This document shows positions 6,413-22,563 of a DNA stretch of 53,022 nucleotides, piece after piece. Position numbers and translations under genes: made by a program. The stretch comes from a virus (taxonomy: Duplodnaviria > Caudoviricetes): the IMG/VR virus record IMGVR_UViG_3300026551_000003, positions 1 to 53,022 of that record; one strand, given 5' to 3'. Each line of letters begins with the position of its first letter. Positions within the stretch are counted from its first letter, which is position 1. The notes under the pieces are model-generated. The model did no database searches. It was not told the origin of the DNA and saw only the letters and a list, made by a program, of their open reading frames with translations.

Positions 6413-7429
6413 ATGGCAGCGATTGAGCCCCCGTTCGTTTGTCAGGGTCGCACGGATCACCCTGCGCAGCTGTTTCGGGTAGCGCTAGCAGGAGCGTCTG
6501 GGGCGCCTTACGCTGCAGGCGGTACTAGCCCACAGGGCGGTGTCGATCCCTACATGGGTCAAGCAATGGTCGTTACCGGTCTGGCTTCACTGAACGTACA
6601 GATCGGTACAGGCCTTGTTTTCATTCCGAACACGACGGCGTGGAACGGAATGTATGCAGGCTACAACACGGCTACCTTCAACGTCGCGATTCCTGCAGTT
6701 TCTACTACGCAGTGGCGATCGGATTACATCGTTGCGCAGTGCATTGATCCTGGCGATGCCACTGCCAACTGGAACGTGTTCGATGTCGCTGGTGTCTTCT
6801 CGTCTTCGTCCCCTGGTGCATTGCCTGCATTGCCTGCGAACTCCATTCCGCTAGCAATCATTCGAGTCGTGCCAAACATGACCGTTACCAACGGTGGTGG
6901 CACGGTTGTCGATGCACGAGTTTGGAATGGTCTCAAGGGCATCTGGCCTACGACCTCGACCGCAAGGCCTTCGTTGACCTGCCCCAACGGGACAATGTGG
7001 TACGAGGCTGATACGTTCGCTCTCGGCGTTATCATCAACGGCGCCTACGCCTATCTCAACACAGCTTCTCCCGCAGCACAAGACCCTTGGCACAACTTCA
7101 ATCCGCTAGCAGCAGGCTGGTCTGTACCAGCAGGTGGCTTCGCCAAGTACAGGAAGACCTTCGATAACGAGGTTCAGCTAACAGCGGCGATCGCTACGAC
7201 GGTAGGTACTAGCTCTACCTGGACGACGATTACCGCTTCGCCGCTGCCTGCGGGGTATCGCCCACCTAGCAACCACATCTTCGCAGCTGCCACAGATGCT
7301 GAGTCGGCTTCTCCTAGTCAGCAATCTCCCCGGGCCCAGCTGCTCACGACTGGTCATATCCAGCTTCAGTACATTTCTACTTCGGCACTGTTTGCCGAAT
7401 TCGAAGCGCGTATTCCGTTGGATGTCTGA
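6413..7429 (+). CDS. Minor tail / tail fibre protein
   Basis: ATG after AAGGA; R-D-IVA...D.R actinophage minor-tail N-terminal pattern; C-terminal W...LPAGYRP beta domain. Confidence 0.75.
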   Translation: MAAIEPPFVCQGRTDHPAQLFRVALAGASGAPYAAGGTSPQGGVDPYMGQAMVVTGLASLNVQIGTGLVFIPNTTAWNGMYAGYNTATFNVAIPAVSTTQWRSDYIVAQCIDPGDATANWNVFDVAGVFSSSSPGALPALPANSIPLAIIRVVPNMTVTNGGGTVVDARVWNGLKGIWPTTSTARPSLTCPNGTMWYEADTFALGVIINGAYAYLNTASPAAQDPWHNFNPLAAGWSVPAGGFAKYRKTFDNEVQLTAAIATTVGTSSTWTTITASPLPAGYRPPSNHIFAAATDAESASPSQQSPRAQLLTTGHIQLQYISTSALFAEFEARIPLDV

Positions 7430-8538
7430 TGACAGCACACTACACCTACCTGGCAACCGATCTGGTATCGAACAAGATACTGGGCGAGTTGCCTGTGAAC
7501 GGCGTAACGTTGGATTGCCAACTTAACAAGGCTGGCAACATGAGCGCAGGGTGTAGACTAAGTGACAAGCGAATTCCTGACGACGAGCTCATCGCTAGGA
7601 CTACGCCAGGTAAGGCTGCGTTCTGGGTCTATCGTGAGAGTCAGATTGTTTGGGGCGGAATTATTCTCAGCCGTGAGTACCAATCGAATAGCAAGGCGCT
7701 GACGCTGACTGGACAGACATTCGAGTGCTACCCCGCTAGGCGCTTTCCTCGTTACGTACTAGGTAAGACGACGCAGCAGATGACCTTTGGCCAATGCTAC
7801 GCTATCAACTACCTCTGGCTACAGCTACAGGGAGTAGCCAGAGGTAGTATTGGTGTAGCAGCTGCTAGCCTACCGGTTATTGATCCGGTTGTTCAGCTCA
7901 CTATAAACGGGTATGACTTGTCGTCATCGTACGACGACTTGATTCAGTCGATCGTGAGCCTTAGCTCGGGACCTGACTACACGATCACTTGGGCTGAGGA
8001 CGGTCAGGGGTACCCACAGAAGCAACTAGTCGTTGCTACACCTATTGGTAACCCAGTGGGACAGACTGATTTGACTGTTGACTACCCTGGTCCTGTTGTT
8101 GACTACGTTTACACAGAGAACGCATCTGCAGGCAACAACCAGTGGTGGGCGGTAGGCGATGGCGATGGTGCAGCAGCTGTCGTAGGCTCAGCAGGAGACG
8201 CTAACGCGCTCGCCTCCGGCTACCCGCTTTGGGAAGGCGTCAACAGCTACTCAGGTGTAACAGCTCAAACTACTATTAACGCACATGCAGCTTCGGATCT
8301 GCTCTCACTCGATCTTCCTCTGGTCACTCACCATGTTGACTTGGAGGGCAACGTCTTTCCGCAATTCGGTTCGTATGGTATGGGCGACTACGTCGTTGTC
8401 AATGCAACCGATCCACGCTTCCCTCGAGGTGTACGGTTCGCCGTTCGTGCAATTGGTTGGACGATACAACCTCCAGATGAAGGCCAGGGCACGGAGAAGA
8501 TTTCGCTCGTGTTCGACGAGTCCACAGGGGGTCAGTGA
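7429..8538 (+). CDS. Minor tail protein (baseplate hub / Tal-like)
   Basis: TGATG coupling; DLVS..ILGELP, IVWGGII and YGMGD-V-V motifs typical of actinophage hub proteins. Confidence 0.8.
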   Translation: MTAHYTYLATDLVSNKILGELPVNGVTLDCQLNKAGNMSAGCRLSDKRIPDDELIARTTPGKAAFWVYRESQIVWGGIILSREYQSNSKALTLTGQTFECYPARRFPRYVLGKTTQQMTFGQCYAINYLWLQLQGVARGSIGVAAASLPVIDPVVQLTINGYDLSSSYDDLIQSIVSLSSGPDYTITWAEDGQGYPQKQLVVATPIGNPVGQTDLTVDYPGPVVDYVYTENASAGNNQWWAVGDGDGAAAVVGSAGDANALASGYPLWEGVNSYSGVTAQTTINAHAASDLLSLDLPLVTHHVDLEGNVFPQFGSYGMGDYVVVNATDPRFPRGVRFAVRAIGWTIQPPDEGQGTEKISLVFDESTGGQ

Positions 8539-9503
8539 TGCCGCGCTACCAGCAAGCTGCGACGTTTGACCTGGTAAGGTCAGTGAAGAACATTCAGGTG
8601 TCATTGAAGCAGCTTCAGATTCAGAGTCCTGGATCTGTGCGTAAGAACTTGAATCAGGTAACGGCGTCACTAGGTCAGAACGGGTACTTCTGGGGCGGCG
8701 ACACCACTGGTTGGGTAGGACTTAACGGTACGTTCGCTGTTGTAAGCGACCCTCCTGCAGGTGCAACCTACCCTCATGCCGGAATGTACGTCAACGATGG
8801 CGTTACCGTAGGCGGAGGCGCGATGGAATCAGCTAATGCGCCTTTTCCCGTTACGCCCTTGCAGCAGTATCTAGTCACAGCGCTAGTGAACTCGTCTTTG
8901 GGGTCGGTGCAGCTAGGATTTGACTGGCAGGACTCAACACACAGTTTTCTCGCAGGACCCACCAACCAGACGTTTACGGTCGTTGCTAACACGTGGACGC
9001 AGCTGTCAGCCATACAAACTGCACCTCTGACTGCAGCTTACGCATATCCTCGGGTGGGAACGCCTAATGCAGATAGCAGCACCACGTTTGCTCAGGCCGT
9101 CTCCGTTACGCCAGTATGCGTGCCAGGCCTATGGCAAGACATGCGACCACTTAGTAACTCCTTTGTCGGTACAATTACTAACGAGTTGCCTCCGCAGTAC
9201 AGACTGAACGCTGATGGTACTGTCGAGGTAGCTGGTGCTATACAGCTTCCGGCTGCCGGAGCGTATAACGGCATAACGTTCTTCACGTTCCCCGCTGGAT
9301 ATAGGAGCCTAAGGTTCTACTCGTGGCCAGTCGTCCAGGTCGGCGGAGCTATGAGTACGGACTCTAACGTAGGCTCACCGCGTTCCTACACAGACTCAAC
9401 GGGCATACTACAAGTGTTCGGTATATCGCCAGCTATCAATAGCAGCGTCGTTCGCATTGGTGGAAGGTATCCAGTCAACTCACCAGGTCTTATTACTATC
9501 TAG
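8535..9503 (+). CDS. Tail fibre / receptor-binding protein with carbohydrate-binding-like domain
   Basis: N-terminal coiled coil; VTP-QQY...ANTWTQLS...AP-TAAYA CBM-like segment; C-terminal FPAGYR domain resembling that of 6413..7429. Confidence 0.7.
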   Translation: MMPRYQQAATFDLVRSVKNIQVSLKQLQIQSPGSVRKNLNQVTASLGQNGYFWGGDTTGWVGLNGTFAVVSDPPAGATYPHAGMYVNDGVTVGGGAMESANAPFPVTPLQQYLVTALVNSSLGSVQLGFDWQDSTHSFLAGPTNQTFTVVANTWTQLSAIQTAPLTAAYAYPRVGTPNADSSTTFAQAVSVTPVCVPGLWQDMRPLSNSFVGTITNELPPQYRLNADGTVEVAGAIQLPAAGAYNGITFFTFPAGYRSLRFYSWPVVQVGGAMSTDSNVGSPRSYTDSTGILQVFGISPAINSSVVRIGGRYPVNSPGLITI

Positions 9504-10332: not shown

Positions 10333-11202
10333 ATGACAGTACTAGTACCAGACGTAAGTGAGTTCCAGTCGCCTGCGTCAGGCAACGCACCAAACTGGTC
10401 GTTGATTAAGGATCAGAACGGAGGAGCTGCGATCATTCGCGTCGGGTATGGTAACGACCATCTCGACAGGATGCTCGTGTCGAACCGATCAACGATCAAG
10501 TCGCTCAACTACACGTTCTGCGGTCTCTACCAATACCTGCGAGCGGATCAAGATCCAGTTACGCAAGCAGGCATGTTCATCAACTGGATCGGACCAGATC
10601 TCAACAAGGGCGAGATTCCTATACTCGACCTGGAGGAGGGATCAGGAAATCAGTCACTACGAGCTGAGATCTGGTTCGGTATTATCGATGCCTTCTACGG
10701 GCTCGATCAGCTTCCACTCAACCAACGGTCGTGGCTGTACAGCTACGCAGTGTTCGTTAGCGATCACAACCTCGGTGGCATCTTCGCATCTCCAAGGCGA
10801 ACGTGGATCGCTGCATACCAGTCCACGGAGCCGACGATCGGACATACGCTCTGGCAGAGCACCGACGGACAGTTCGGCGTTAACGTCGTCAGCTGGAGTG
10901 GATGTGGAAGAGTCGACACGTCGATCTACCACGGCGACCTTCCAACCCTAGGAGCGATGGGCTGGCAACCTACTAGCCCTACTCCTACTCTGCCAACTAC
11001 ATCTAAGAAAGAGGTAGACATGCTTCACATCAAAGTCACCGCACCCGCCGGCCACGTCTGGACGGGAACGCGTACGTTCCTCTGGTCACCAGGGTCGGCA
11101 CCCTCGCACATCATCGACGGTGCTACGGAAGGTGCAGTCGAAGCAGTCATGGCCGCTGTCGTCGTGTCGTGGGGTCAGTACCTGGCCTGGGGCGGATCCT
11201 GA
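10333..11202 (+). CDS. Endolysin, GH25 muramidase
   Basis: DVSEFQ N-terminal motif, LDLEE catalytic DxE, WIAAY and LWQ; Pro/Thr linker then a small C-terminal domain. Confidence 0.92.
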   Translation: MTVLVPDVSEFQSPASGNAPNWSLIKDQNGGAAIIRVGYGNDHLDRMLVSNRSTIKSLNYTFCGLYQYLRADQDPVTQAGMFINWIGPDLNKGEIPILDLEEGSGNQSLRAEIWFGIIDAFYGLDQLPLNQRSWLYSYAVFVSDHNLGGIFASPRRTWIAAYQSTEPTIGHTLWQSTDGQFGVNVVSWSGCGRVDTSIYHGDLPTLGAMGWQPTSPTPTLPTTSKKEVDMLHIKVTAPAGHVWTGTRTFLWSPGSAPSHIIDGATEGAVEAVMAAVVVSWGQYLAWGGS

Positions 11203-11204
11203 GC

Positions 11205-11546
11205 ATGGCAGCACGTGTCGAGACGAAGGTCACAGTTGCATCTGCTGCAACCTTCGTCTCAGGCCTGGCGCTGTGGGCGCTCGGTAAGTACGTCTTCAAG
11301 GGCGGTACGGTTCCTGACGTGCTTCAGTCGTGGATCTACGCAGCCGCACCAGCAGCTATCACGTTCCTGGCTGCCTACCGTGCACCGCACACGCACAGAC
11401 CAGATCTGCGACCACCCGAGGTACCGACGCTACCTCCGGGCTACGCTCCTCCTTCTGCAGCGCTTGCGCCGCCTAAGGAAGAGACGCTGATACCAACGGT
11501 GCCGAAGATACCAACCTCATCTCCGATAGTGCCTCCGGGCACCTAA
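11205..11546 (+). CDS. Putative holin / membrane protein with Pro-rich tail
   Basis: VETKV.. start, two hydrophobic segments, AAYRAPHTHRPDL motif; follows the endolysin. Confidence 0.65.
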   Translation: MAARVETKVTVASAATFVSGLALWALGKYVFKGGTVPDVLQSWIYAAAPAAITFLAAYRAPHTHRPDLRPPEVPTLPPGYAPPSAALAPPKEETLIPTVPKIPTSSPIVPPGT

Positions 11547-11549
11547 GAC

Positions 11550-11605
11550 TCCTAGCCGGGCCTCCGGTCGTTCCGCCACGATTGTCCCTCGAGGCCCGGC
11601 TAGGA
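11550..11605. terminator. Hairpin at the convergence of the two transcription arms
   Basis: TCCTAGCCGGGCCTC (11550-11564) pairs with GAGGCCCGGCTAGGA (11591-11605), 15 bp. Confidence 0.7.
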
Positions 11606-12124
11606 CTCTGCTTGCTCACTAGCCTCTTTGAAGATTGCTATGAGCGGCCGACGTATGCCGGGATAATGCTCTTCGCCTTTGATTGCTATCCAGGCAACCA
11701 GGTGCCTGGATGCGTCGTTGGCATGCCTCCAGGTAGTAATTGGCGTTGCGAGGATACCTAGGAGTGACAGTTTAATGTTGGTAGTCCACTCCTTCCGGTC
11801 CGATCCCGGGAGCTCCACAGGGCAGTTGGTTATGGCGCAGTACAGCTTGACTACGCCGATATATTCACGAGCCATGATCTTGGCGAACTCGTTGTCACGA
11901 TTGTCAAAACGCTCGCATATGATACGGTCGGGTTTCTGAATGTGAAGGAAGCACCAGAGCTTGAGGTGGTGGTTGCTGTTGTTTCCTATCTGACCACATT
12001 CGAAGTGGTTCTTCAGCGCTCCTTTCCAGTAGTAGATTCCTTCGCGAACTTCGAGTTCGAAGGTAGCCCAACCAGTCGTTCCACCTGGGTCAAGAGCAAG
12101 TAGTTTCACCGATTTCCCTTCCAA
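11600..12124 (-). CDS. ruvC: RuvC-like Holliday junction resolvase
   Basis: LLALDPGGTTGWA, IICERF and HANDA acidic motifs. Confidence 0.85.
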   Translation of the reverse strand: MEGKSVKLLALDPGGTTGWATFELEVREGIYYWKGALKNHFECGQIGNNSNHHLKLWCFLHIQKPDRIICERFDNRDNEFAKIMAREYIGVVKLYCAITNCPVELPGSDRKEWTTNIKLSLLGILATPITTWRHANDASRHLVAWIAIKGEEHYPGIRRPLIAIFKEASEQAES

Positions 12125-12414
12125 TTATTGCAGGGCGCACATGCTGTTTGCACATTGTACCAGCAGTGCTTGCCTCCGTTACGTACAGGTACAACGTGAT
12201 CTAGTACTATGCTAGTGAGTGCTACGTGCACCTGGCACTGCGGGCCATGAATTTGACACATACCTTCGTCGCGGCCCCAGATACATTGCCGAATTACTAT
12301 GAGCTCTCTGCACACATCGTGCTCGTGGCACAGCGCATAACCGCTGTGCATGTAGTTGCTCTTGGCTTGGTAGTCACGCCCTGTAGGTTCTAGCGCAAGG
12401 CTTATATCTATCAT
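12106..12414 (-). CDS. HNH endonuclease
   Basis: RDEGMCQ...C...LDHVVP..NGGKH...NVQTACAPCNNWK. Confidence 0.88.
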   Translation of the reverse strand: MIDISLALEPTGRDYQAKSNYMHSGYALCHEHDVCRELIVIRQCIWGRDEGMCQIHGPQCQVHVALTSIVLDHVVPVRNGGKHCWYNVQTACAPCNNWKGNR

Positions 12415-12560
12415 GGTCTACCTCAAACATTCTAATAGAGTCTAAGCTAGGAAAAAAATCCTGGGGTACTACGATACTACGTGAGTAGGGTTCCATAGGT
12501 TAGACGCTATTAGAATGCGATCTAAGCGCTGTCTCTTAAAACTCACTGATTTGAAAATTG

Positions 12561-12770
12561 TTAATCGCGAGGCCAGTCTGAAGGCCACTCCTCCCAACCT
12601 ATAGCGACGCTTGCTTCGCGCGCGACCATTGCTCCGTACATGGGAAAGGTTTTGAGCTTCTGCCCTGTTGTGTTGATCCAGTCGATCGCTGCTTGAGTCC
12701 TTGCAGCGTGATCTGCAGGCGTTAGTACTTCTACGTCCCTCTGTGACTCTGGCCACCTAGGCTTCTTCAT
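12561..12770 (-). CDS. Hypothetical protein
   Basis: RBS AAAGGA; overlaps the upstream gene end. Confidence 0.6.
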   Translation of the reverse strand: MKKPRWPESQRDVEVLTPADHAARTQAAIDWINTTGQKLKTFPMYGAMVAREASVAIGWEEWPSDWPRD

Positions 12771-13080
12771 TTGCTAGTTCCTTTCTGATCTCGTCGGCCT
12801 CTGCTTGGAGGTCTTCTATTCTGGCTTCAATCACTGCGAGCCGTGCCTGTGGAGATTTAGCGTCTCCCCGGGTCCGGAGGACTAGGTTGGAAGGTTCCAA
12901 GTTCGAACGGTCGTTGTCTAGGAACTTGACGAACTCGTTCTTCTCCAACCTCCTACCTAGCTTCTCCTCCATAAGCAGGACGTGAGTGGCCACGAAGCCG
13001 CGATCTTCGGTCTTGGTGTGATGGTATCCGTTCTGGTTGACGAACGTAGTTCCTACTTCAGCTGCTTGTCCCCTAGGCAT
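12757..13080 (-). CDS. HNH-like protein with C-terminal coiled coil
   Basis: GY...H-LLME-KLGR-L...V-F-D-DR-N--PSNL; the usual VHH histidines read VKF, so it may be inactive. Confidence 0.75.
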   Translation of the reverse strand: MPRGQAAEVGTTFVNQNGYHHTKTEDRGFVATHVLLMEEKLGRRLEKNEFVKFLDNDRSNLEPSNLVLRTRGDAKSPQARLAVIEARIEDLQAEADEIRKELANEEA

Positions 13081-13088
13081 GCTTCACC

Positions 13089-13391
13089 TCAATCCCTTCT
13101 AGAGTCTGTAGGCCAAATCACTACGTCCGAGTCGCTACGCATTGCCTTCTCGTAGACGCGTCGGACTAGCTCGTCGTCCTGTGGGATGTCGTTCATAGTC
13201 TTCTTCTTGTCGCCTGTACTCCTTGCTATTTCTTCTTCGCTGTACATTCCGGTGCTGCGGAGCCATGTAGCTACTACCTCAGGGGGTGCCTTCGGACATA
13301 CGTGACCTTGATCAGCTTCACGAGCTCCGCAGTCCTCAGTGCAGTTACATAGACCACGTGTGCCTTGGCAGTAGCCGCAGTTGTAGTTCAT
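13089..13391 (-). CDS. Cys-rich hypothetical protein
   Basis: ATGA overlap with polymerase stop; CGYC...CNC-EDC...HVCP. Confidence 0.6.
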   Translation of the reverse strand: MNYNCGYCQGTRGLCNCTEDCGAREADQGHVCPKAPPEVVATWLRSTGMYSEEEIARSTGDKKKTMNDIPQDDELVRRVYEKAMRSDSDVVIWPTDSRRD

Positions 13392-15757
13392 AGCTGTCCC
13401 CAATCTGTTCCTACGGTTATGTCGACGTCGATGTTGACGTAGTCTCCGACGACTTGCTGTCCGGACTTGATCATGTAGTAGCGAAGTATGTCTGCTACCT
13501 TGTCTACGTTGTCCTTATGACACTCTGCTAGGAGGCTGTCGTGAACGATGTTACGTATCTGCGCGATGCCCTTGAGTGCAGGCCGGATCCAGGTAAATGC
13601 CTGCAGACAGATGTCCGAAGCTGTCGACTGAGGTTTGAAGGCAAGAGCCTCGTTCAGGATCTCGTGTTTATTCTCCTTCGTAATCAACCAGAAGCGACGA
13701 TGCCTACCGAACACTGTCGTGAGGTCTTCTCCAGCTAGGACAGCCTTCCTTGTCTGTTCCCTGAACTCAACGATGTTCGGGATGACGCTGAAGAACGCAC
13801 GCATGCCTCGTTGTGCTTCGGTTAGTGGCAGGTCGTATTCCTCAGCAATGCTTTTCGCTTCACGTCCATATCCGAGACCGTAAAAGTAGGCCTTGACGCG
13901 AATACGTAGTTCCTTCATCTGATACTTGTCGAGGTGACTCGTATCTCCATATAGTACCGGGGTTAGTTCGTCGAACAGGTCGCGATCGGGATCGTTGAAG
14001 ATGTCGCGTAGGTAGTCTTCCTTTGCCAACCAAGTCAGGATGCGTGCTTCGATTTGCTTGTAGTCAGCGTTGACGAAGACATTGCCAGGATGTACAGGTA
14101 CGAACTGCTTGCGAAGACGTGGCCCTCGCGTGATGTTCTGTAGGTTCGGGTTACGACAAGAAGGACGACCAGTCGTGGTCCCATGCAGAAGAAAGGTTGG
14201 GAACACACGACCCTTGTAGACGCGCTGACGTATACCCTTGACATAGGTGCCATACGACTTCGCATCCAATCTGTGCTCGGCAAGGGCTCCGAGGAAGTCG
14301 TAGTACTCTCCCCAGGGCTCCTTGCATCGTTCGATGAGTGCAGCGATGACTTCCTTGTCAGTGCAAGGTCGCCATTCACCCTGCTGGTTCCTCTTCTTCG
14401 GTACCGTAATGCCGAAGTGATCTTGGAGTACTTTGACTATTTGCAGAGGTGAGTTAGGATTGAATTCGGGCCTGCGAGAGGTGACTTGCATATCGTGTCG
14501 AAGAATTCGAAGTCGCTCGAGGTAGTAAGCAGCTAGCTCGTCGTTGTACTTGAGGTCGACACCGATACCGTTCAGCTCGACGTACATGATCTCGTTCGAT
14601 ACGCGAACTAGGAAGTCATGTAGCGCACGAAGACCAGGCTCCTTCGTCATCATTTGCGTGAATAGTTCATGCAGTGCATAAGTTGCTGCACAGTCATATG
14701 CGTTGTACTGGTACAGTACATCTCGAGGAATAGCTCCGTAGCCCTTGCCTGGAGCTAGGTATCGTTTGATGTCGTCATCGTATCTCGGCACACCGAGTAG
14801 TTCCACGGCGAGGTACTTGAGGCCATGAATTCCTCGTCGCTCGTCGAGGCAGTACGAAGCCAGCATGGTATCGAACCATAGACGTACAGCCCCGATGCGA
14901 TGGTAGAGCCCTTCAAGATCGAACTTGCCGTTCTGAGCAATGATTCGATTATGAGAACGCAGGTACTCTCCGAGTCGTGACATGACAGTAGTGTCATTAG
15001 ACGCGTTCTCGCCGAACACACAAACCTTTCCGGGTGCGTATCCGATTCCCACACAGAGAAGATGATGGCGCGAGGAGTGTTCGAAGGAGACGTCTTTGTC
15101 GATGTCACTTTCAATGTCAACTGTGACGGGGCTGCTTGGCAACTCTTCGATAGCTCGCAGCGCCATACCACGTTCGTCCACGACAAGGACCTGAGGCTCT
15201 GTCCACTCACTTGACGTCCTTAGAAGCTTGCCGAAGTCGTTTACGATCGAGGGGAAGAAGGAGTCGCCTTTCGGTCGGAGACAGGCTGCGGGATGGAACG
15301 TCGGTATGACTTGAAGTCCAAGCTCCGGTACTTCTCGTGGCGGTCCGACGCGGAGCTTCGTGATACCATCTTTAGCTCCCAAGATCGATCGTGCGGCCGA
15401 GTTACCCATAGCCACAGCCGTAGTGACTCCGCGGTCTTGTAGCTCCTGAATGAGACGGGGCCGACAGCAATGTATCGCGTTCGCACTGGGCGTTGCGTTG
15501 TCCGGAGGGCGACATAGGCAAGCATTTGTGAGAAGGGTGGCCTTGCGGTCGATGTGGTAGTGCTGGAGGATCTTGTCGAGGAGCTTACCACTGACCCCCA
15601 CAAAAGGGTGTCCCAGGCGTGCTTCGTTAGCACCAGGCGCCTCGCCCACCACAGCGAGAGTCGCTCGCGGCGGTCCATCTGAGGGAACGAACCGTCCAAT
15701 GTCATACAGATCACAGTCCTCGCAAAGTGCATCCGGATGCTTCCTAGGCTTGTCCAC
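13388..15757 (-). CDS. polA: Family A DNA polymerase with N-terminal family-4 uracil-DNA-glycosylase domain and 3'-5' exonuclease
   Basis: UDG motifs CEDC, GEAPG, CRPP and HPAA; exonuclease motifs DIES, NGKFD and YNAYD; polymerase motifs A (DYKQIEAR), B (RVKAYFYGLGYG) and C (VHDS). Confidence 0.95.
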   Translation of the reverse strand: MDKPRKHPDALCEDCDLYDIGRFVPSDGPPRATLAVVGEAPGANEARLGHPFVGVSGKLLDKILQHYHIDRKATLLTNACLCRPPDNATPSANAIHCCRPRLIQELQDRGVTTAVAMGNSAARSILGAKDGITKLRVGPPREVPELGLQVIPTFHPAACLRPKGDSFFPSIVNDFGKLLRTSSEWTEPQVLVVDERGMALRAIEELPSSPVTVDIESDIDKDVSFEHSSRHHLLCVGIGYAPGKVCVFGENASNDTTVMSRLGEYLRSHNRIIAQNGKFDLEGLYHRIGAVRLWFDTMLASYCLDERRGIHGLKYLAVELLGVPRYDDDIKRYLAPGKGYGAIPRDVLYQYNAYDCAATYALHELFTQMMTKEPGLRALHDFLVRVSNEIMYVELNGIGVDLKYNDELAAYYLERLRILRHDMQVTSRRPEFNPNSPLQIVKVLQDHFGITVPKKRNQQGEWRPCTDKEVIAALIERCKEPWGEYYDFLGALAEHRLDAKSYGTYVKGIRQRVYKGRVFPTFLLHGTTTGRPSCRNPNLQNITRGPRLRKQFVPVHPGNVFVNADYKQIEARILTWLAKEDYLRDIFNDPDRDLFDELTPVLYGDTSHLDKYQMKELRIRVKAYFYGLGYGREAKSIAEEYDLPLTEAQRGMRAFFSVIPNIVEFREQTRKAVLAGEDLTTVFGRHRRFWLITKENKHEILNEALAFKPQSTASDICLQAFTWIRPALKGIAQIRNIVHDSLLAECHKDNVDKVADILRYYMIKSGQQVVGDYVNIDVDITVGTDWGQL

Positions 15758-16529
15758 TCGCCCACCTCCACAGGGTCTCGGTGTTTTGCTGAACTAGCTC
15801 AGTGTTAAGCGAGCGGGCGTCGAGGCTGAAGTAGTTGTCAGGACGCCTAGGGCCTCTTACGTTTGTATCGATATGTATGTCGTACGCTGCGTAGACGAAT
15901 GGAGCTGACGTATCGACACTGTTGATGTTCGGGTAGCTAGACGCTTGAATGATTTCCTTAGGCCACGCGTAGGACAGGCCAAGGAGGTGGATCGGATGAG
16001 GAGCATGCTCCTCAATGTACAAGGCCGTTTTAAGTCTGATGTGCGTGTCGATCTCTTCTGATAGCCACTTGGGGAGCCCGAGAATAATGGTCTGCTCGAA
16101 CTCTTCTTCCAGCTCGAGATACTTCTTAACGCATCTCCTGAGCTGGCTCTCGTCAGCACCTTGTACGACGCCCATGAACTGTATGGGCTTAGCGGTCTCG
16201 GCAACAGCGTGGTGCATCTCCCAGATGTGCATGAAGTCGCGCGACGTCTGGATGGTTTTATCCAGATCACCCATATGATCCGGCAGAACCAGGATATCTG
16301 CATCTACCTCGTACACCATCTGAATGAGTGTCTCGTGACTAAGAGGCTTACTACCCTCCGCTTCGAAGGCGCCGTTGTCCAGCATGATCGCTACGCCATC
16401 CCTCATTCCCAGGACCTTGTAGAAGTTCCTGTAGACTGGCCCTTTCAGGCCTTCTGGAATGACCATGTGCAGAGGCTGGTCTACGATCTGGTGCAGCAGG
16501 CTCGTAGGTGGAATAAGTGCTACTTTCAT
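15744..16529 (-). CDS. dpdA: Divergent TGT-fold deazaguanine transglycosylase (DpdA-like)
   Basis: MLDNGAFE, LPD, VVQG, IHLLG and SVDTS match TGT/DpdA catalytic motifs; lies next to the que genes. Confidence 0.75.
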   Translation of the reverse strand: MKVALIPPTSLLHQIVDQPLHMVIPEGLKGPVYRNFYKVLGMRDGVAIMLDNGAFEAEGSKPLSHETLIQMVYEVDADILVLPDHMGDLDKTIQTSRDFMHIWEMHHAVAETAKPIQFMGVVQGADESQLRRCVKKYLELEEEFEQTIILGLPKWLSEEIDTHIRLKTALYIEEHAPHPIHLLGLSYAWPKEIIQASSYPNINSVDTSAPFVYAAYDIHIDTNVRGPRRPDNYFSLDARSLNTELVQQNTETLWRWASGQA

Positions 16530-16644
16530 CGTGTCTCCTAAACCAGTGTCGTCGGTACTTGGTTAGAGCCTTCTTGCCTCTACGCTTCCAGCGACATACT
16601 GGACAACGGATGTCCTTCTTTCTAGTGCGCAGCGGGGGCTTCAC
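16351..16644 (-). CDS. Possible small basic C2H2-like zinc-finger protein
   Basis: CPVC...YRRHWFRRH fills the gap 16530-16621, but the frame runs on into dpdA. Confidence 0.35.
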   Translation of the reverse strand: MKPPLRTRKKDIRCPVCRWKRRGKKALTKYRRHWFRRHDESSTYSTYEPAAPDRRPASAHGHSRRPERASLQELLQGPGNEGWRSDHAGQRRLRSGG

Positions 16645-16873
16645 CGTCTGCGATCTTCGCTCGCACTGCACAGTCCTTGGCTTCGATCAAGCGTGTGATC
16701 ATGTGCGCGACCTGCAGGTCGTTGCTCTTAATGAGGTGCAGCATATTCGCTGCGACGTCTTCGAACGGCCGTGCAACTACTTGCAGATGCAGAGGAAGAT
16801 GTGAGCAGTCGAGCCACCGGACCGCATCGATGACTGCACGGTGACGACCTTCGAGTAGGGACTTGTCGATCAT
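16622..16873 (-). CDS. Conserved small helical-hairpin phage protein
   Basis: HLPLHLQ-VARPF...RLIEAKDCAVRA motif; ATGA coupling. Confidence 0.7.
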   Translation of the reverse strand: MIDKSLLEGRHRAVIDAVRWLDCSHLPLHLQVVARPFEDVAANMLHLIKSNDLQVAHMITRLIEAKDCAVRAKIADGEAPAAH

Positions 16874-17424
16874 GACATTGCCTCCAGGGTAACGTGGTAG
16901 TTGTTGTTGATGATGAAGTTGGTCCAGTCGGCTGGCTCACACATGCGCTCGTCGCCTGGCGTGGGACGGTTCCAACCTACTATCGCGTACAGGTAGTCCC
17001 AGTACGAGGAACACACTACCTCGCCAGGGACGAGACCATGCGGCCAGGTCAGGTGGAAGAGCTTGACGTGAAGGGCTTCTAGAGTGTCTCCCCCGATAGC
17101 TTCCCAGTCGTATTTCGTACCGAGCATCTTCTGCGCGTCAGAAGCGACGAGGTAGCGCTGCGGATCAGTCCTGTTGGGCTGATTGCAGTTATTCCAGGCC
17201 ATCGGGTGGCCGATGTAGCTGCGCATGTCTACCCAGCCGACGCCTCCAGGCTTGCCCTCGAGTCCCCACGGAATGTCTCCATCCCAGTGGTGCATACCTG
17301 CGACGTGGTTATCGAGGTTCGGTTTGCCCTGTAGGGCTTCGCCGAGCTGGATGGCTTCCGCGGAGTCGCCTGAGGTGCGAATGACGAATACGTCACCGGG
17401 CTTGAGGATGCTCTTGGCCTGCAT
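16870..17424 (-). CDS. Permuted papain-like (NlpC/P60, YiiX/YaeF-type) amidase
   Basis: PGDVFV, N-terminal His (NHVA), G-KYDW, C-terminal Cys (VVCSS) and closing PAD. Confidence 0.8.
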   Translation of the reverse strand: MQAKSILKPGDVFVIRTSGDSAEAIQLGEALQGKPNLDNHVAGMHHWDGDIPWGLEGKPGGVGWVDMRSYIGHPMAWNNCNQPNRTDPQRYLVASDAQKMLGTKYDWEAIGGDTLEALHVKLFHLTWPHGLVPGEVVCSSYWDYLYAIVGWNRPTPGDERMCEPADWTNFIINNNYHVTLEAMS

Positions 17425-17719
17425 TGAATAGCTCCTTCAGTGGAATGAACCCCTGAGCGTCTGCTGCGGGATGTCTGTTACTGTGCTTGGTAGCTGCACG
17501 CTTTAGCAGGTACAGCTTGATGAAGGTGAAGCGTGCGTAGTTGGCAAGGTCGAGAACCTCCTGCATTGCCTCTTCGAGTGTGTCGGTGCTGAGAAACGCC
17601 ATCTCGCCGTACTTCTCCTGGCCCTTGGCGAGTCGCTCTTGGCAACGAGCGACGAACTCCTCGTCAGCCTTCTGCAGTAGTTCTGCCAAATCGCTCGACA
17701 TTGTGTGCTCGTTTGACAC
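17393..17719 (-). CDS. All-alpha NTP-pyrophosphohydrolase-like / nucleotide-modification-associated protein
   Basis: R---G--KYG...LEEAMQEVLDLANY acidic EExxxExxD helix. Confidence 0.6.
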   Translation of the reverse strand: MSNEHTMSSDLAELLQKADEEFVARCQERLAKGQEKYGEMAFLSTDTLEEAMQEVLDLANYARFTFIKLYLLKRAATKHSNRHPAADAQGFIPLKELFNAGQEHPQAR

Positions 17720-17946
17720 GGTAAGATGTTGATGAGGTAGATAAAGGAGTCGATTGCCTCCTCTTCAACCAAGGTCTTGAGCGCCATGGCATCGTGCGTG
17801 CCTCGTATGATCTTCTTGACGAGGTTGGCTAGCTCACCAACTTCCCCTGCGAGAGCTAGGGTGAGGAAGCCCATGTCGTAGTACAGCTCGGGGAACCACT
17901 CCTTGGTGTCCTCGATGCATTGTTTCTGGATCTCTTCGAGTGTCAT
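17503..17946 (-). CDS. mazG: MazG-like nucleotide pyrophosphohydrolase (C-terminus apparently disrupted near 17720)
   Basis: ATGA overlap with folE stop; LAGEVGELANLVKK...EEEAIDSFIYL; then reads out of frame over the next gene. Confidence 0.8.
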   Translation of the reverse strand: MTLEEIQKQCIEDTKEWFPELYYDMGFLTLALAGEVGELANLVKKIIRGTHDAMALKTLVEEEAIDSFIYLINILPCQTSTQCRAIWQNYCRRLTRSSSLVAKSDSPRARRSTARWRFSAPTHSKRQCRRFSTLPTTHASPSSSCTC

Positions 17947-18506
17947 TTGCCTATCGCTCTCATGTACTCGTCCTTGGCTGTTCGCTCGTGCATTCCGAAA
18001 ACTCCACGCATAGTAGCGGTGTACGTCGTCGTCCCTGGAGCTTGCACTCCCCTGATTGTCATGCATAGATGCTCACACTCCATGACTACCGCTACATCGT
18101 CCGTCTCGAGATGCTTCTGCAAACGGTCCGCTATGTCACAGGTCAGCTCCTCCTGCACACATAGCGCACGAGCACAGTTCTGAACCAGCCTCGGTATCTT
18201 CGAAAGGCCTACAACTCTGTCCTGTGGAATGTACCCTACGTGGGCGAACCCGCGGAAGGGAACGACGTGATGAGCGCAGAGGCTAACGACAGGAATCTGC
18301 TTGACAACGACCATGTCTCGATTCTTGGTCGGGAACGTGGTGAAGTTGAAAGGGATCGGAGTCGTCATCTCCTTGAGCATCTGAACAAAGCGCTCCGGTG
18401 TACGTTTCGAGTGAGGACTGTGCATGTCCATACCCGCGATGTCCGTAAGCAGCCTCGCTGCTAGGTCGCTCATGTTCAGCTCTACTTGACTGAGATCAAG
18501 TACCAC
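17943..18506 (-). CDS. folE: GTP cyclohydrolase I
   Basis: TPER, SLCAHHVVPF, GLSKIPR, QEELT and HLCMTIRGV. Confidence 0.96.
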   Translation of the reverse strand: MVLDLSQVELNMSDLAARLLTDIAGMDMHSPHSKRTPERFVQMLKEMTTPIPFNFTTFPTKNRDMVVVKQIPVVSLCAHHVVPFRGFAHVGYIPQDRVVGLSKIPRLVQNCARALCVQEELTCDIADRLQKHLETDDVAVVMECEHLCMTIRGVQAPGTTTYTATMRGVFGMHERTAKDEYMRAIGK

Positions 18507-19215
18507 GAGTTTGCGCTCCGTAGATGAAGTTGTGTACCTGGATGTTGAGTCGCCAAGACACCTTGTGCTTCTTGATTAGGTCGACGATGTCCGTTGCGCC
18601 CCAGGCTCCTGGCTTGTCCCATACAGGACCAGCGAACACCTGGACGCCTGAGTCTTGAACGAGCGCCTCCCATACCTGAAGAGCGACGTTGAAGTCCTCC
18701 TCGTTGGCGATCGTGAACTTAACTGTACCCACACCGAAGTTAGACATGCGACGTAGGTTGCGTGAACGCTGTACTAGCCAGGTCGGCTCGCCTGAGCCTG
18801 GCAGCTTCCAGTCCATAACAGGCTCGAGACCGAGGTCGAAGAGCTTTTCGGGGATCTCGAGCGTCCCGTTGGTAAAGGCTTCCCAGTGCGCCTCCTCGTC
18901 GCGCATTAGTCGCACTGTCTCCAGAAGTGCATCGTTGTTCTGGAGGAAGGGTTCGCCACCAGTGAAGCAGACGTTAGTAGCGCCTGTCAGCTGACGGTGC
19001 TGCTTGATCTGAGCGACGAGCTCCTTAGGCCAGAATGGCTTCTGCTCCTCTCGGTACAGTTTCGGATCGATCGCGAACTGCGAGTCACATGGCCACAGTG
19101 CGCACTTCAGGTTGCAGCCGGCGAATCGTACGAACTGGGTCAGGTAGCCGACGCGAGGACCTTCTCCCTGAGTCGATACGTAGTGTTCGACTATACGGAG
19201 CGGTGTGCTTGCCAT
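18496..19215 (-). CDS. queE: 7-carboxy-7-deazaguanine synthase (radical SAM)
   Basis: STQGEG, FVRFAGCNLKCALWPCD (CX3CX4C), FTGGEP, TNGT and QVH; ATG at 19215 is the likely start. Confidence 0.95.
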   Translation of the reverse strand: MASTPLRIVEHYVSTQGEGPRVGYLTQFVRFAGCNLKCALWPCDSQFAIDPKLYREEQKPFWPKELVAQIKQHRQLTGATNVCFTGGEPFLQNNDALLETVRLMRDEEAHWEAFTNGTLEIPEKLFDLGLEPVMDWKLPGSGEPTWLVQRSRNLRRMSNFGVGTVKFTIANEEDFNVALQVWEALVQDSGVQVFAGPVWDKPGAWGATDIVDLIKKHKVSWRLNIQVHNFIYGAQTRGT

Positions 19216-19604
19216 CAGCTCACTCCGGCGTAGGTCGCCCACGTCTTCGGTGTCTCCGAGACGTAAATCACGAGTTCGTAGTTCTCGTGCTCCTCTCGGA
19301 TCTCTTCATCGAGTGCTACCTTGGCTCGATCCCAGAGCCACTTGGCAATGTTCTCGGCGGTTGGGTTGACGTTGAGTACGTCGTTCAGGCATCGGTGATC
19401 GAGCATGGTATCGAGTGCCGTCTTGAAGCCGTCGAGCTTGTTGTAGTCGAATACGAAGCCGACTTCGTCCACGTCGTTTGTAACGATCTCGAGCCTGATC
19501 GTGTAGTTGTGTCCATGTAGCCGAGCGCACGGGTGCGTTGGAGATAGGCCCCGCAGGTAGTGAGCTGCGGAGAGGGCGAACTCCTTCGAGATGGAGTAGG
19601 TCAT
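19215..19604 (-). CDS. queD: 6-carboxy-5,6,7,8-tetrahydropterin synthase
   Basis: SAAH, CARLHGHNY, LDHRCLN, PTAENIA and SETP. Confidence 0.96.
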   Translation of the reverse strand: MTYSISKEFALSAAHYLRGLSPTHPCARLHGHNYTIRLEIVTNDVDEVGFVFDYNKLDGFKTALDTMLDHRCLNDVLNVNPTAENIAKWLWDRAKVALDEEIREEHENYELVIYVSETPKTWATYAGVS

Positions 19605-19729
19605 TTCTTTCCTCCCAGAGCCCGACGTAGCATAGCAAGCATGAGTCGGTTGTTTCGGTTCTTTGCCTGCTTCGCTTGCCTTATCGGACTGTTGCGAATG
19701 CGCTTCTTCAAGCGCGTACGTCTGGTCAT
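19601..19729 (-). CDS. 42-aa highly basic peptide
   Basis: MTRRTRLKKRIRNSPIRQAKQAKNRNNRLMLAMLRRALGGKK; ATGA overlaps with both the queC stop and the queD start. Confidence 0.65.
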   Translation of the reverse strand: MTRRTRLKKRIRNSPIRQAKQAKNRNNRLMLAMLRRALGGKK

Positions 19730-20433
19730 ACCTTCACCTGCGACTTCCAGAAGCTGTTGTCCTCGTACTCGGTCTTGTCGTCGACCTTGGCGTCATGTAG
19801 AGCCTCGAGACGCTCGACGCAAGTACCACAGCGTCCGCAGTGAACCTTACCACCCTTGTAGCAGGACCAGGTAAGGTGTACAGGCACGTCGAGTCGCTTA
19901 GCCTCGCATGCGATGTCTGTCTTGGTCCAGTGAATGAACGGAAGCTCGAACTTCCAGTCCTGCTGAATGAAGCCCTCGTTTGCCCTGCGGATGACGTCCT
20001 CGAGTAGATGCCAGAACACAGGTCGGCAGTCGGGGTAGATGGCAGCGTCCCCGTTATGCGGAGCGGCAGCGACATAGTGGCCACCCTCTCCGATGCAGAT
20101 GCCTGCGGCGATGGAGGCCATGATCATGTTCCTGTTCGGAACGACTGTCGCCTTCATGGTGTCGGAGGCGTAGTGACCCTCTGGTACGTCGACGTCAGGG
20201 TTGATGAGTGACGAGTTAGAGTCTCGCATCTCGTTTCCGACGTCGATCAGATCGATCGCTTGCCAAGGAAGACCGAAACGCTCCGCTGCCTGGTTAGCGA
20301 AGTAGAGTTCCTTGGCATGGCGCTGAGCGTAGTTGAAGCTCAGAACGTGAGGCCTGTAGTTGTGCTTGACGAGATGGTACAGCATAGTAACGCTGTCGAG
20401 TCCACCACTGACGATTGCTACTCCATCGCTCAT
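19726..20433 (-). CDS. queC: 7-cyano-7-deazaguanine synthase
   Basis: SGGLDS, VPNRN, YPDCR, TWSCY and CGRCGTC. Confidence 0.97.
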   Translation of the reverse strand: MSDGVAIVSGGLDSVTMLYHLVKHNYRPHVLSFNYAQRHAKELYFANQAAERFGLPWQAIDLIDVGNEMRDSNSSLINPDVDVPEGHYASDTMKATVVPNRNMIMASIAAGICIGEGGHYVAAAPHNGDAAIYPDCRPVFWHLLEDVIRRANEGFIQQDWKFELPFIHWTKTDIACEAKRLDVPVHLTWSCYKGGKVHCGRCGTCVERLEALHDAKVDDKTEYEDNSFWKSQVKV

Positions 20434-22563
20434 TCGTTCTTCTCCAAGAGTGAGTTGTACGTTGTTGCTCTTCCCTCGCCACCCTTGGCAATCAGGCCTC
20501 GGGCGATGAGAGTCTTCTCGATGTCATCCATCTCTCTTGCGGTGAGATGGTAGGTCTGCATCAGCTTGGAACGGGCGAAGCTCTTACGCTTCTGAATGGC
20601 ATGTAGGATCAGCTCAATCTTGTGCTCGAGTGGTCCCTTGCCAACGTTGATGATGATGTCCTGTGCGTACCTCCTCCATACGTCGCCGTAAGCTGCTGCT
20701 CGTATAATGTCGCTTTCCTCAACGACAACAGTGCCCTCGAGACATCTTGAAGCCGCTAGTAGTATTGCAGCCTTGAGAATATTGACTGCGAGACGTACGT
20801 ACATTGGAACCATTGTGTCTCGTAGCTCAACGCCACTGTCTACTGCCAACTGTGTCAGAGTCTGCTCGACTACGTTGTACCTGGCCCACGCGCGTTCTGT
20901 CATCTTAGCGTCCACAGGAGCTGATTGTACTCCTACGACTTTGCCTTTGAACGTGATGGCCTCGGTGTGTTCATGAGCCTTGCTTATGTCTCTGAGTTCT
21001 TCTAGTATCCGATCTCGGCCCGTGCGGTTCTCTTCTTCGGGTGGTCCGAGAGGCCTAACCTTATTGACATCGCTCTCTGCCGGACTCGATGTCCTCGGTC
21101 GTTACGATTCGTTGCATCTTCGACTTGATACCGCCTGCGAAGAGGACGAGTCGTGGATCCTTGATGACGATCTCTTCCTTGCGCAAGAGTCGCTTTTGCG
21201 TTCTACCGTCGTACAGCTTAGTCAGGAACTCCTTAAAGCCTGACATATAGTCCTTCTTGGCCATCTGATCCATGAAGCCCGTGAACTCGTCACGAAGGAA
21301 TAGGCTTGTTCTTCCCGGCCTCGTCGACAGAGCTGTCATGAAGCCTTCGATCGATCCGTCCGTCGCTAGCAGGAGGCTGTCGTCGATTTCCAGAACTAGG
21401 TCCATCGCTAGGTCCATCGCCGTCGACTTCCGTGTCAACGTCGTGTCTGCAAGTATCATGAACCAGAGGTTCGGACAGATTGAGCCGTACCGAGTAGGCA
21501 GTTTGACAGAACCAGCAAGTAGGGTCGACAATGCTATGAAGGCGCCTGCTTCGTGATACTGGATTGCTGCGTCGCCTACTGTCTTCGCCCATTCGACATA
21601 TCTCTCTACGAACGACGGTTCCTGATCTAGTGCCTTACGTTCAGCCTTCGTGACCAAGGCCAACTCAGTTCCAGGTGGTAGAGTGGCCATCTTCGCTTGT
21701 TCTGAATGACGTGCAGATGCTCTACATACGTCCTTCCAAAGGCGTATGAAGTTGTCCCCGAACTTGTTGCAAGCTGCATCCCGACAGACTTGGAATGCTT
21801 CCGATAGCTGAAGTCCAGCTTCCAGACAGTACATTTCCAACCTGAAGAGAGCGGAGCTACGATCTGTTTCTGGGGTCCTGTGGAACAGTGTGAATGCTGC
21901 ACCGTTAATGCGGTGCCTGTACCTTTCAAGGATCTCCTCCCCTCTCTCCGGCACGAACTCTGGAAACGGTATGTCTAGGTATTCGTATCCTGCAACTTGA
22001 TCGTAACGATGATGGAACTCCTCAAGGGGATATACGTCATCGTTCCAGACCAAGACTCGTACCTTAGGCGCCTCCGCTCCTTGTCCGTACTTATAATTTC
22101 GAGTACCAGGAATCCTGAGTAGCTGCGTGAGATCCCATCCGCTTCGATCACTACCCTCGCTGGAATGGTGGTATGCCACTCGCCGTGCAGCATCTTCAGC
22201 ATCTTCTGGGTCTGCTGGTCGGTCCAGAGTCCAAAGCGCCTGGTAGTGTCCAGGACTCGTTTCATAAGCAATCGAGGGTTGTATGAGTAGATTGTTGGGG
22301 TGACAGCTATCCAGGTCAGCCCAGATACAGCCAACCGGACCCACGTTTGACTTGACACGTCTCGTCTCCTTCAGGAGCTGAGGACAGAAGTACACGTTCT
22401 CTACGAGTGCTCGAGAGCGAACTAGCTTCTCCGCCATCTTTGCGTCGTCGGGGTACGAGAAGAACTGCTCAGTGAACTTGCCTTCAGGCCTACGAGTAGC
22501 AATGCAGATATAGCCAGTCGTGTCTCCGTATGCTGTTGCGAAGAAGTCTACCAACCCTGACAT
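20430..22563 (-). CDS. Primase-helicase (RepB-like primase N-terminus, DUF3987-like NTPase C-terminus), split by a frame break at about 21080
   Basis: IWADLD, ETSPGHYQALW, LLRIPGTRNYK, RKSTAM and RDEF motifs in 21061..22563. A second frame is open from 21080 to 20430 (AESDVNKVRPLGPP...RL..N.LK.A...) and is ATGA-coupled to queC. Confidence 0.85.

Follow-up and report, generated by a model that had tools for sequence, protein, structure and literature searches.

The IMG/VR virus record IMGVR_UViG_3300026551_000003 (a linear sequence of 53,022 bases, analyzed at full length and called 'the window' below) probably carries a DpdA3-type module for 7-deazaguanine modification of DNA, located among the replication genes of an uncultured soil phage with a genome of ∼53 kb. 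The module includes the genes queC, queD, queE and folE, a MazG-like gene, a small all-helical open reading frame (ORF), two accessory ORFs, a gene for a protein with the tRNA-guanine transglycosylase (TGT) fold and the gene of a family-A DNA polymerase. The locus is a further example of the published DpdA3-type gene set, with a layout already published for Cellulophaga phage phiST. Among DpdA subfamilies, complete replacement of guanine has been tied to DpdA3 alone. What the present analysis adds is modest: a large clade of soil phages in which a rigid module is accompanied by a polymerase fused to a uracil-DNA glycosylase (UDG), a conserved helical ORF within the module, a cultured relative and two frame breaks of the assembly type.

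The TGT-fold protein belongs to the DpdA3 family

An initial annotation of the window, made from the letters alone, had described the product of the gene at 15744–16529 as a divergent TGT-fold protein that reads DNGAFE and resembles DpdA3-type enzymes. The fold, the motif and the resemblance were all substantiated. An exhaustive HMMER search collected 1,594 cluster representatives at E ≤0.001 (511 at E ≤1e-10), nearly all of them 240–270 amino acids (aa) long. Sixty-five of these representatives were aligned (alignment A1), and this alignment was the basis of both the profile used with hhalign and the AlphaFold2 (AF2) model. Residues P8, D51, G53, D84, R165, H181, G184 and D206 are invariant in the alignment, and the motif D51-N-G-A-F-E56 is present in the window protein.

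The AF2 model is a barrel (pLDDT 96.3, pTM 0.93). Its top PDB match in a Foldseek search was the DNA preQ0 insertase DpdA (7ui4; E 6.8e-7); next in rank were TGTs of bacteria, archaea and eukaryotes, with TM scores by query of 0.54–0.63. Pfam TGT (PF01702), the only Pfam match of the protein, stayed below threshold (18.7 bits vs a gathering threshold of 26.3).

In profile–profile comparison with hhalign, the family was matched to CGPG_00065 of phage phiST with probability 99.4% (E 1.9e-21, 239 columns), to gp056 of Campylobacter phage CP220 with 99.0% (E 2.7e-18) and to protein 00090 of Brevundimonas phage StAshley with 98.9% (E 3e-17). The match to DpdA1 (gp03) of phage 9g had probability 1.3% (E 0.041) and was confined to the N-terminal motifs. 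CGPG_00065 is named as DpdA3, the founding protein of the subfamily, in the accessible text of PMC10516641; CP220 gp056 was identified as the Campylobacter DpdA3 by homology in this analysis. The gp056 group was also the best tblastn match group (14 of 17 records), with 26–28% identity to the window protein. Two PHROG families carry the same signal: phrog_20335, defined by phiST 00065, was matched by 34 of the 65 family members, and phrog_19058, defined by CP220 gp056, by 16. With regard to DpdA4, a Pfam scan with E up to 0.01 gave no match of the window protein to DUF6610 (PF20314). Taken together, the profile and structure comparisons place the protein with DpdA3, and not with the NF041059 model of DpdA, with DpdA1 or with DUF6610, the nearest fold being that of 7ui4. 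On profile homology and predicted fold, the window protein is a member of the DpdA3 family.

Profile alignment to 7ui4 puts D206 on the DpdA nucleophile, which is Asp256 in 7ui4 (PMC10164549), and Q122 on His181. In motif alignment with 9g DpdA1, D51 aligns with LDSGAF and D84 with LDGIGD. As the catalytic aspartates are kept and D206 falls on the nucleophile, the base-exchange chemistry of DpdA3 looks intact; the molecule acted on is not readable from sequence. The isoelectric point was tried as a clue to DNA binding and dropped as uninformative (family median 5.72, range 4.7–9.39). Prediction of a complex between DpdA3 and polymerase residues 190–789 (UDG domain omitted, 41-row alignments) scored 0.00 against a mark of 0.32, which is no evidence either way.

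Genes of preQ0 synthesis and the predicted base

FolE, QueD, QueE and QueC make preQ0 from GTP. All four genes, already named in the initial annotation, were identified by Pfam, PHROG and NCBIfam profiles (Table 1). QueC consists of the QueC domain alone, with no GATase fusion. QueD is the sole PTPS-fold gene found in a six-frame search of the record; hence the record lacks a DpdL paralogue. Searches of the complete record in six frames detected no QueF, GATase_6, second PTPS or canonical TGT. The earlier remark that neither queF nor gat-queC is visible was thus upheld; the remark also covered arcS, and none turned up, with no ArcS-specific model among those used. QueF scored above the cut-off in none of 27 large related records. 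Matches below the cut-off (15.7–21 bits) occurred in nine of the 27, and the one that was placed by coordinates (in record G004) falls in FolE.

Presence of QueC together with lack of QueF, DpdL and GATase indicates, by the pathway logic of PMC10516641, that preQ0 itself is the base predicted to be inserted.

Conservation of the module in related loci

A pattern scan of IMG/VR produced 250 candidate stretches, of which 175 were confirmed as relatives; the best 80 were examined by tblastn with the window proteins. Along with the cluster representatives counted above, the 175 confirmed stretches make DpdA3 a large family. Among the 74 loci having at least 1.5 kb of sequence downstream, the polymerase starts within 150 nt of the end of the DpdA3 gene in 60, within 1.2 kb in 13 more and elsewhere in one.

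Conservation extends to the upstream side. Where at least 1.5 kb of upstream sequence is available (64 loci), the MazG-like gene and the helical ORF occur together in 55; three loci have the MazG-like gene only, one the helical ORF only and five neither. With an upstream stretch of 6 kb or more (49 loci), FolE was found in 48, QueC in 47, QueE in 36 and QueD in 12; the QueE and QueD counts are too low because both proteins diverge, and both are present by Pfam in locus L036. An HNH endonuclease gene, matched in 59 of the 80 loci, travels with the module. Several related records are 50–53 kb long and have terminal repeats, so genomes of this clade are about this size; the CheckV completeness estimate for the window is 83%.

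In 13 relatives, 200–1200 nt are inserted at the junction of the DpdA3 and polymerase genes. The only such insert inspected, in L036, has an ORF of 185 aa (8743–9300) between the two genes, with a weak LAGLIDADG match (E 0.0042).

Polymerase, MazG-like protein and helical ORF

In the N-terminal UDG domain of the polymerase (residues 1–190), the GEA of the GEAPG motif (G38, E39, A40) and the cysteines C12, C15, C82 and C98 are invariant in 41 clade sequences. This domain is probably an active iron-sulfur uracil glycosylase of the family-4 type fused to the replicase. UDG-fused PolA groups have been described (PMC13697223).

The initial annotation had listed a MazG-like gene and a second, all-alpha pyrophosphatase-like gene, and the two fared differently. 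The clade profile of the MazG-like protein (A3, 56 sequences) matched 2q73 (6.3e-12), DCTPP1 (1.4e-11), CGPG_00068 of phiST (E 1.4e-5) and MazZ (0.0059). The acidic metal-binding residues E35, E38, E63 and D66 are invariant in the family, which together with the homology to the 2q73 and DCTPP1 folds supports the MazG-like label. Judged by these profile scores, the protein is nearer to DCTPP1-type enzymes than to MazZ.

The helical ORF, found in 66 of the 80 loci, is predicted by AF2 to form two long helices (pLDDT 82.8), so its all-alpha character was retained. Its alignment has a conserved stretch E-x-x-x-E-x-x-D-x-x-N-Y, in which E54 and N60 are invariant and D57 and Y61 nearly so. The sole family signal was AF_0060 at E 0.046. 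No significant family was found in Pfam, NCBIfam, PHROGs or a PDB profile search, Foldseek gave no match and the Atlas clusters are unnamed. Comparison with the MazG profile by hhalign gave a probability of 1.5%, and the same method revealed no counterpart in phiST 00066 or 00068. The term 'pyrophosphatase-like' therefore reflects a resemblance of one motif that is statistically unsupported. The product may be a helper of DpdA3 or of the MazG-like protein.

Comparison with known systems

The closest published layout is that of phiST. According to the accessible text of PMC10516641, five genes, including those of a MazG/dUTPase-like protein, DpdL and DpdA3, lie in phiST between the genes for CDG and the polymerase, and the authors read this layout as post-replicative. 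The phiST record NC_020842 has, on one strand, QueD, QueE, FolE, the MazG-like gene, DpdL, 00066, DpdA3 and 00064. The window has the same order, QueD-QueE-FolE-MazG-small genes-DpdA3-polymerase, with the phiST polymerase placed as in PMC10516641, since the region is unannotated in NC_020842. The two differ in the base expected: phiST lacks QueC, has the QueD-like DpdL and makes 7-deazaguanine, whereas the window has QueC and lacks DpdL. Another DpdA3 phage covered in the same text combines DpdA3 with FolE, QueD, QueE and QueC, as the window does; it also has QueF and a predicted formyltransferase, DpdN, while the window has no QueF.

Phage CP220 shares with the window the DpdA3-family protein described above. 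Its modified base is ADG, and gp056 is not located beside the polymerase gene. In the CP220 sequence (6772–9265), the DpdA3-family gene lies between genes of an HD-domain/P-loop protein and a thymidylate-kinase-like protein, i.e. in a nucleotide-metabolism neighbourhood.

The replication region of the window resembles that of Enterobacteria phage 9g and other Queuovirinae, with a primase, a DUF669 single-stranded DNA-binding protein, a Sak4-like or AAA_24 ATPase, a Cas4-like nuclease, a helicase, que genes, a DpdA and a polymerase. In 9g, however, DpdA1 has 317 aa and is barely alignable, QueC is replaced by Gat-QueC and a clamp gene separates DpdA from the polymerase; about a quarter of G is replaced, by the base dG+, as far as the accessible literature goes. 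DpdA1 of 9g inserts preQ0 into DNA (PMC10516641, accessible text). The row FolE-DpdA1-clamp-polymerase, set in the same kind of replication module, indicates that a link with the polymerase is no hallmark of DpdA3.

Cultured relatives are the Brevundimonas phages vB_BpoS-StAshley and MaInes (ON529865 and ON529866), grown on B. pondensis LVF1, whose gene order matches that of the window: QueC, QueD, QueE, a small ORF, a DpdA3-family gene and a UDG-type PolA. They differ in that FolE lies 5 kb off, beside genes for ribonucleotide reductase (RNR), a dNMP kinase and a phosphoribosyltransferase (Pfam 8.7e-14), and in that the stretch examined has no annotated MazG-like gene. In StAshley (10960–15775), RNR beta, RNR alpha, dNMP kinase, FolE and phosphoribosyltransferase genes stand in a row, 600 nt downstream of the polymerase gene. 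The G+C content of StAshley is 50%, vs 59–66% for most other Brevundimonas phages tabulated in PMC10070969, whose accessible text reports no DNA-base analysis.

Mode of action

In the mechanism that we favor, FolE, QueD, QueE and QueC would supply preQ0 made from GTP, and DpdA3 would exchange guanine for it by the double-displacement chemistry of TGT and DpdA. By analogy with the three DpdA3 phages of PMC10516641 (accessible text), most guanines, or all of them, are probably exchanged. DpdA3 probably acts on phage DNA, during or soon after its synthesis. DNA is preferred as the substrate because no targets other than polynucleotides are known for the fold family, the nearest solved structure is of a DNA-acting enzyme and polymerase coupling is seen with DpdA1 too. 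To our knowledge, every characterized TGT-fold transglycosylase acts on a polynucleotide. Tight co-expression with the polymerase would provide DpdA3 while DNA is being made. The MazG-like enzyme would most likely sanitize the deoxynucleoside triphosphate (dNTP) pool for a replicase with a built-in uracil glycosylase. Removal of dUTP or other unwanted dNTPs could be its plain alternative task, given the invariant motifs and the four invariant cysteines of the UDG domain.

Several observations weigh against modification of DNA by DpdA3 as outlined. The NCBIfam DpdA model (NF041059) gave the TGT-fold protein 17.5 bits (cut-off 200), and hmmsearch with the family alignment against 7ui4 detected marginal sequence similarity to DpdA (E 0.058). 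DpdA3 is a bare barrel of 261 aa, and the matched DpdA and TGT chains, of about 340–440 aa, are longer by 80–175 residues. TGT has a Cys-rich metal site; the window DpdA3 has one Cys only, so such a site is not possible in it. The 80 loci are kin, and their shared gene order is therefore one conserved architecture, not 80 independent events. Co-occurrence of the MazG-like gene with DpdA3 in 58 of 64 relatives and in phiST would fit a dGTP-clearing role too. Neither how much of the guanine is replaced nor by which base can be read from sequence. Tests of DpdA3 in Escherichia coli by the authors of PMC10516641 failed, the DNA being left unmodified, as the accessible text of that paper states. 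No paper was found with a successful DpdA3 assay or a demonstrated nucleotide-level route; supplementary files were not covered by this search.

The failed tests and the small size of DpdA3 are among the facts that would be accommodated if the exchange preceded replication. DpdA3 would then act at the level of a free deoxyguanine nucleotide, putting preQ0 in place of its guanine, and dGTP would be cleared by the MazG-like enzyme, perhaps helped by the product of the helical ORF. The polymerase would incorporate the analogue, in a guanine counterpart of the Z-genome system. We regard this as unlikely, if the strongest of the alternatives. The idea is not new, as it was printed in 2019 for Campylobacter phages (PMC6884629, accessible text). 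It agrees with complete replacement in all three DpdA3 phages analyzed, with free ADG nucleoside in CP220-infected cells and with the lack of DNA modification by DpdA3 in E. coli, all taken from the accessible text of PMC10516641. It also agrees with a minimal barrel, in which the C-terminal extension of DpdA and TGT is missing, and with the frequent company of the MazG-like gene in relatives and phiST. Searches of the whole record found no phosphoribosyltransferase, nucleotide (thymidylate-type) kinase or RNR. With dGTP as the direct substrate no kinase would be needed, which fits this gene content; on the other hand, the absence of these genes and of a PurZ-like nucleotide-level synthase from the record weighs against this route.

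Further points speak for DNA over free nucleotides. TGT-fold enzymes are known to us as polynucleotide-acting, and the best structural match of DpdA3 is a DpdA that acts on DNA. Adjacency to the polymerase is common to 9g with its DpdA1, the phiST layout was read as post-replicative by its authors, the MazG-like profile is closer to DCTPP1 than to MazZ, the MazG-like gene and the helical ORF are both missing at the locus in five of 64 relatives, and the pyrophosphatase label of the helical ORF is unsupported. The likeness to the PurZ/MazZ/DatZ/DpoZ set, in that one region combines a gene for base synthesis, an enzyme with the MazG fold and a polymerase, is an analogy only: the key enzyme in the window has the TGT fold and is not a nucleotide-level synthetase, the MazZ match is at the level given above and there is no DatZ-like HD enzyme. 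The step taken in the initial annotation, from pyrophosphatases next to a polymerase to incorporation of a modified dGTP, is thus unsupported; the question is an old one that the sequence of this locus does not advance. With regard to the E. coli result, the helical ORF could encode a missing partner without which DpdA3 is inactive, and this could explain the failure.

Less probable again is motif-limited modification of a fraction of guanines, as with DpdA1 and DpdA2, serving as an anti-restriction decoration. Modification levels in the wider DpdA family run from <0.1% to 30% (PMC10516641, accessible text), and with identity to CP220 gp056 as low as that given above, the efficiency need not carry over; however, the three analyzed DpdA3 phages were reported in the same text as fully modified, and the window protein groups with DpdA3, not with DpdA1. 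We give very little credence to action of the module on RNA or on the host, e.g. in preQ0 supply or tRNA modification. The que genes and the TGT fold do stem from the tRNA queuosine pathway, and TGT is the only Pfam family that the protein touches; yet this match is below the gathering threshold, the matched TGT and DpdA chains are considerably longer, the protein groups with those of phages having modified DNA and the gene sits within a replication module, close to the polymerase in most relatives.

Whether DpdA3 works on DNA, as we prefer, or before replication has consequences beyond this clade. If the latter were true, DpdA3 would be a TGT-fold enzyme that left polynucleotides. DNA that is fully substituted with 7-deazaguanine resists many restriction enzymes; the answer is therefore relevant to the conflict of phage and host and to the making of modified DNA with enzymes. 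The cultured Brevundimonas phages, having the same core of genes, are a practical system for the before-or-after-replication question.

Gene order and frame-breaking gaps

On the minus strand, from 22563 to 13388, the genes follow in transcription order from the primase to the polymerase (Table 1).

Table 1. Features of the DpdA3 locus in the window, in order of transcription
Feature	Coordinates	Strand	Basis and remarks
Primase, RepB-primase N-terminus + DUF3987	20430..22563	-	Pfam; PHROG DNA primase match on the 161-aa piece; stop overlaps QueC start by 4 nt
QueC, 7-cyano-7-deazaguanine synthase	19726..20433	-	Pfam QueC 5.6e-49; TIGR00364 148.3 bits vs cut-off 150.3
QueD, 6-carboxytetrahydropterin synthase	19215..19604	-	Pfam PTPS 1.7e-28
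QueE, radical-SAM 7-carboxy-7-deazaguanine synthase	18496..19242	-	PHROG QueE-like 2.3e-28; Fer4_12 8.5e-7; NCBIfam QueE models up to 8.4e-33, below cut-offs
FolE, GTP cyclohydrolase I	17943..18506	-	Pfam GTP_cyclohydroI 2.9e-52; NF006826 172.3 bits vs cut-off 162
MazG-like all-alpha NTP pyrophosphohydrolase	17664..17946	-	ATG overlaps FolE stop; ORF as written extends to 17503
Small all-helical ORF	17393..17719	-	Start GTG 17719 or ATG 17701; no family assigned
Accessory 184-aa ORF, possibly permuted papain-like (Peptidase_C92-like) hydrolase	16870..17424	-	ESM-Atlas structural look-alikes
Accessory 83-aa ORF	16622..16873	-	phrog_5120 3.3e-13
DpdA3-family TGT-fold transglycosylase, 261 aa	15744..16529	-	Profile homology and fold
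Family-A DNA polymerase, 789 aa, N-terminal family-4-like UDG + 3'-5' exonuclease domain	13388..15757	-	Pfam
HNH endonuclease, downstream of polymerase	12757..13080	-	Pfam HNH_3 5.4e-9

The initial annotation had described one overlap-coupled run. This holds for eight of the ten junctions from primase to polymerase, which overlap by 4 to about 56 nt, and does not hold for the other two, where QueC and QueD are separated by 121 nt and a gap of 92 nt precedes the TGT-fold gene. The 14-nt overlap that it gave for the stop of the TGT-fold gene (15744) and the GTG start of the polymerase gene (15757) is correct. A consensus scan of 13000–21200 detected four promoter-like sites (3.5 expected) and three terminator-like sites (5.3 expected), i.e. 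not above chance.

Two genes of the run have broken frames in the record. Compared with five of five relatives in DNA alignment, the record is short of 32 nt at 17723–17725 in the MazG-like gene, and a conserved helix at the C-terminus (Y-x-x-K-R-x-x-N-x-x-R-F), present in every relative, is shifted to another frame. A Logan contig of run X1 spans this gap with 29 extra letters and three ambiguous ones; in Logan contigs of runs X2 and X3, loose ends that match are seen at this position. Given the gap relative to relatives and the extra letters in the contigs, phages of the population very probably have an intact MazG-like gene, and the deficit in the record would be due to a local gap of the assembly or to a deletion carried by a minority. 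A programmed frameshift in this gene was considered and dropped, as the break is a 32-nt gap at which the run contigs carry extra letters.

The primase is split into ORFs 21061–22563 (500 aa) and 20430–20915 (161 aa), with the break near 21079/21080. Its 724-aa homologue in relative L004 matches with residues 1–495 in one frame and 505–721 in another, so that about nine codons and the frame are lost in the window; this looks like a second short gap (∼30 nt) similar to that in the MazG-like gene.

Accessory ORFs and occurrence of the module

Megablast of 13388–20433 against 50,697 deposited phage records gave no match, and no RNA dataset holding the module stretch was listed among public runs. 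Contigs holding the stretch were present in soil-metagenome runs from three studies, and two of the runs may be its source.

The initial annotation had called the product of the 184-aa ORF a papain-like amidase. Its structural look-alikes in the ESM Atlas (TM 0.75–0.82) include clusters in which 24–100% of members carry PF05708 (Peptidase_C92), and these look-alikes are the whole basis of the papain-like label; Pfam, NCBIfam and PHROGs gave no match. That the protein alters the base or touches the preQ0 nitrile is pure speculation. Candidate residues are the His in NHVAG and the Cys in VVCSSY. The ORF was detected by tblastn in three of the 80 loci. Its position is inside the module in the window and in L004 and L005; in L012 it follows the polymerase gene. 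The 83-aa ORF was detected in the same way in six of the 80 loci.

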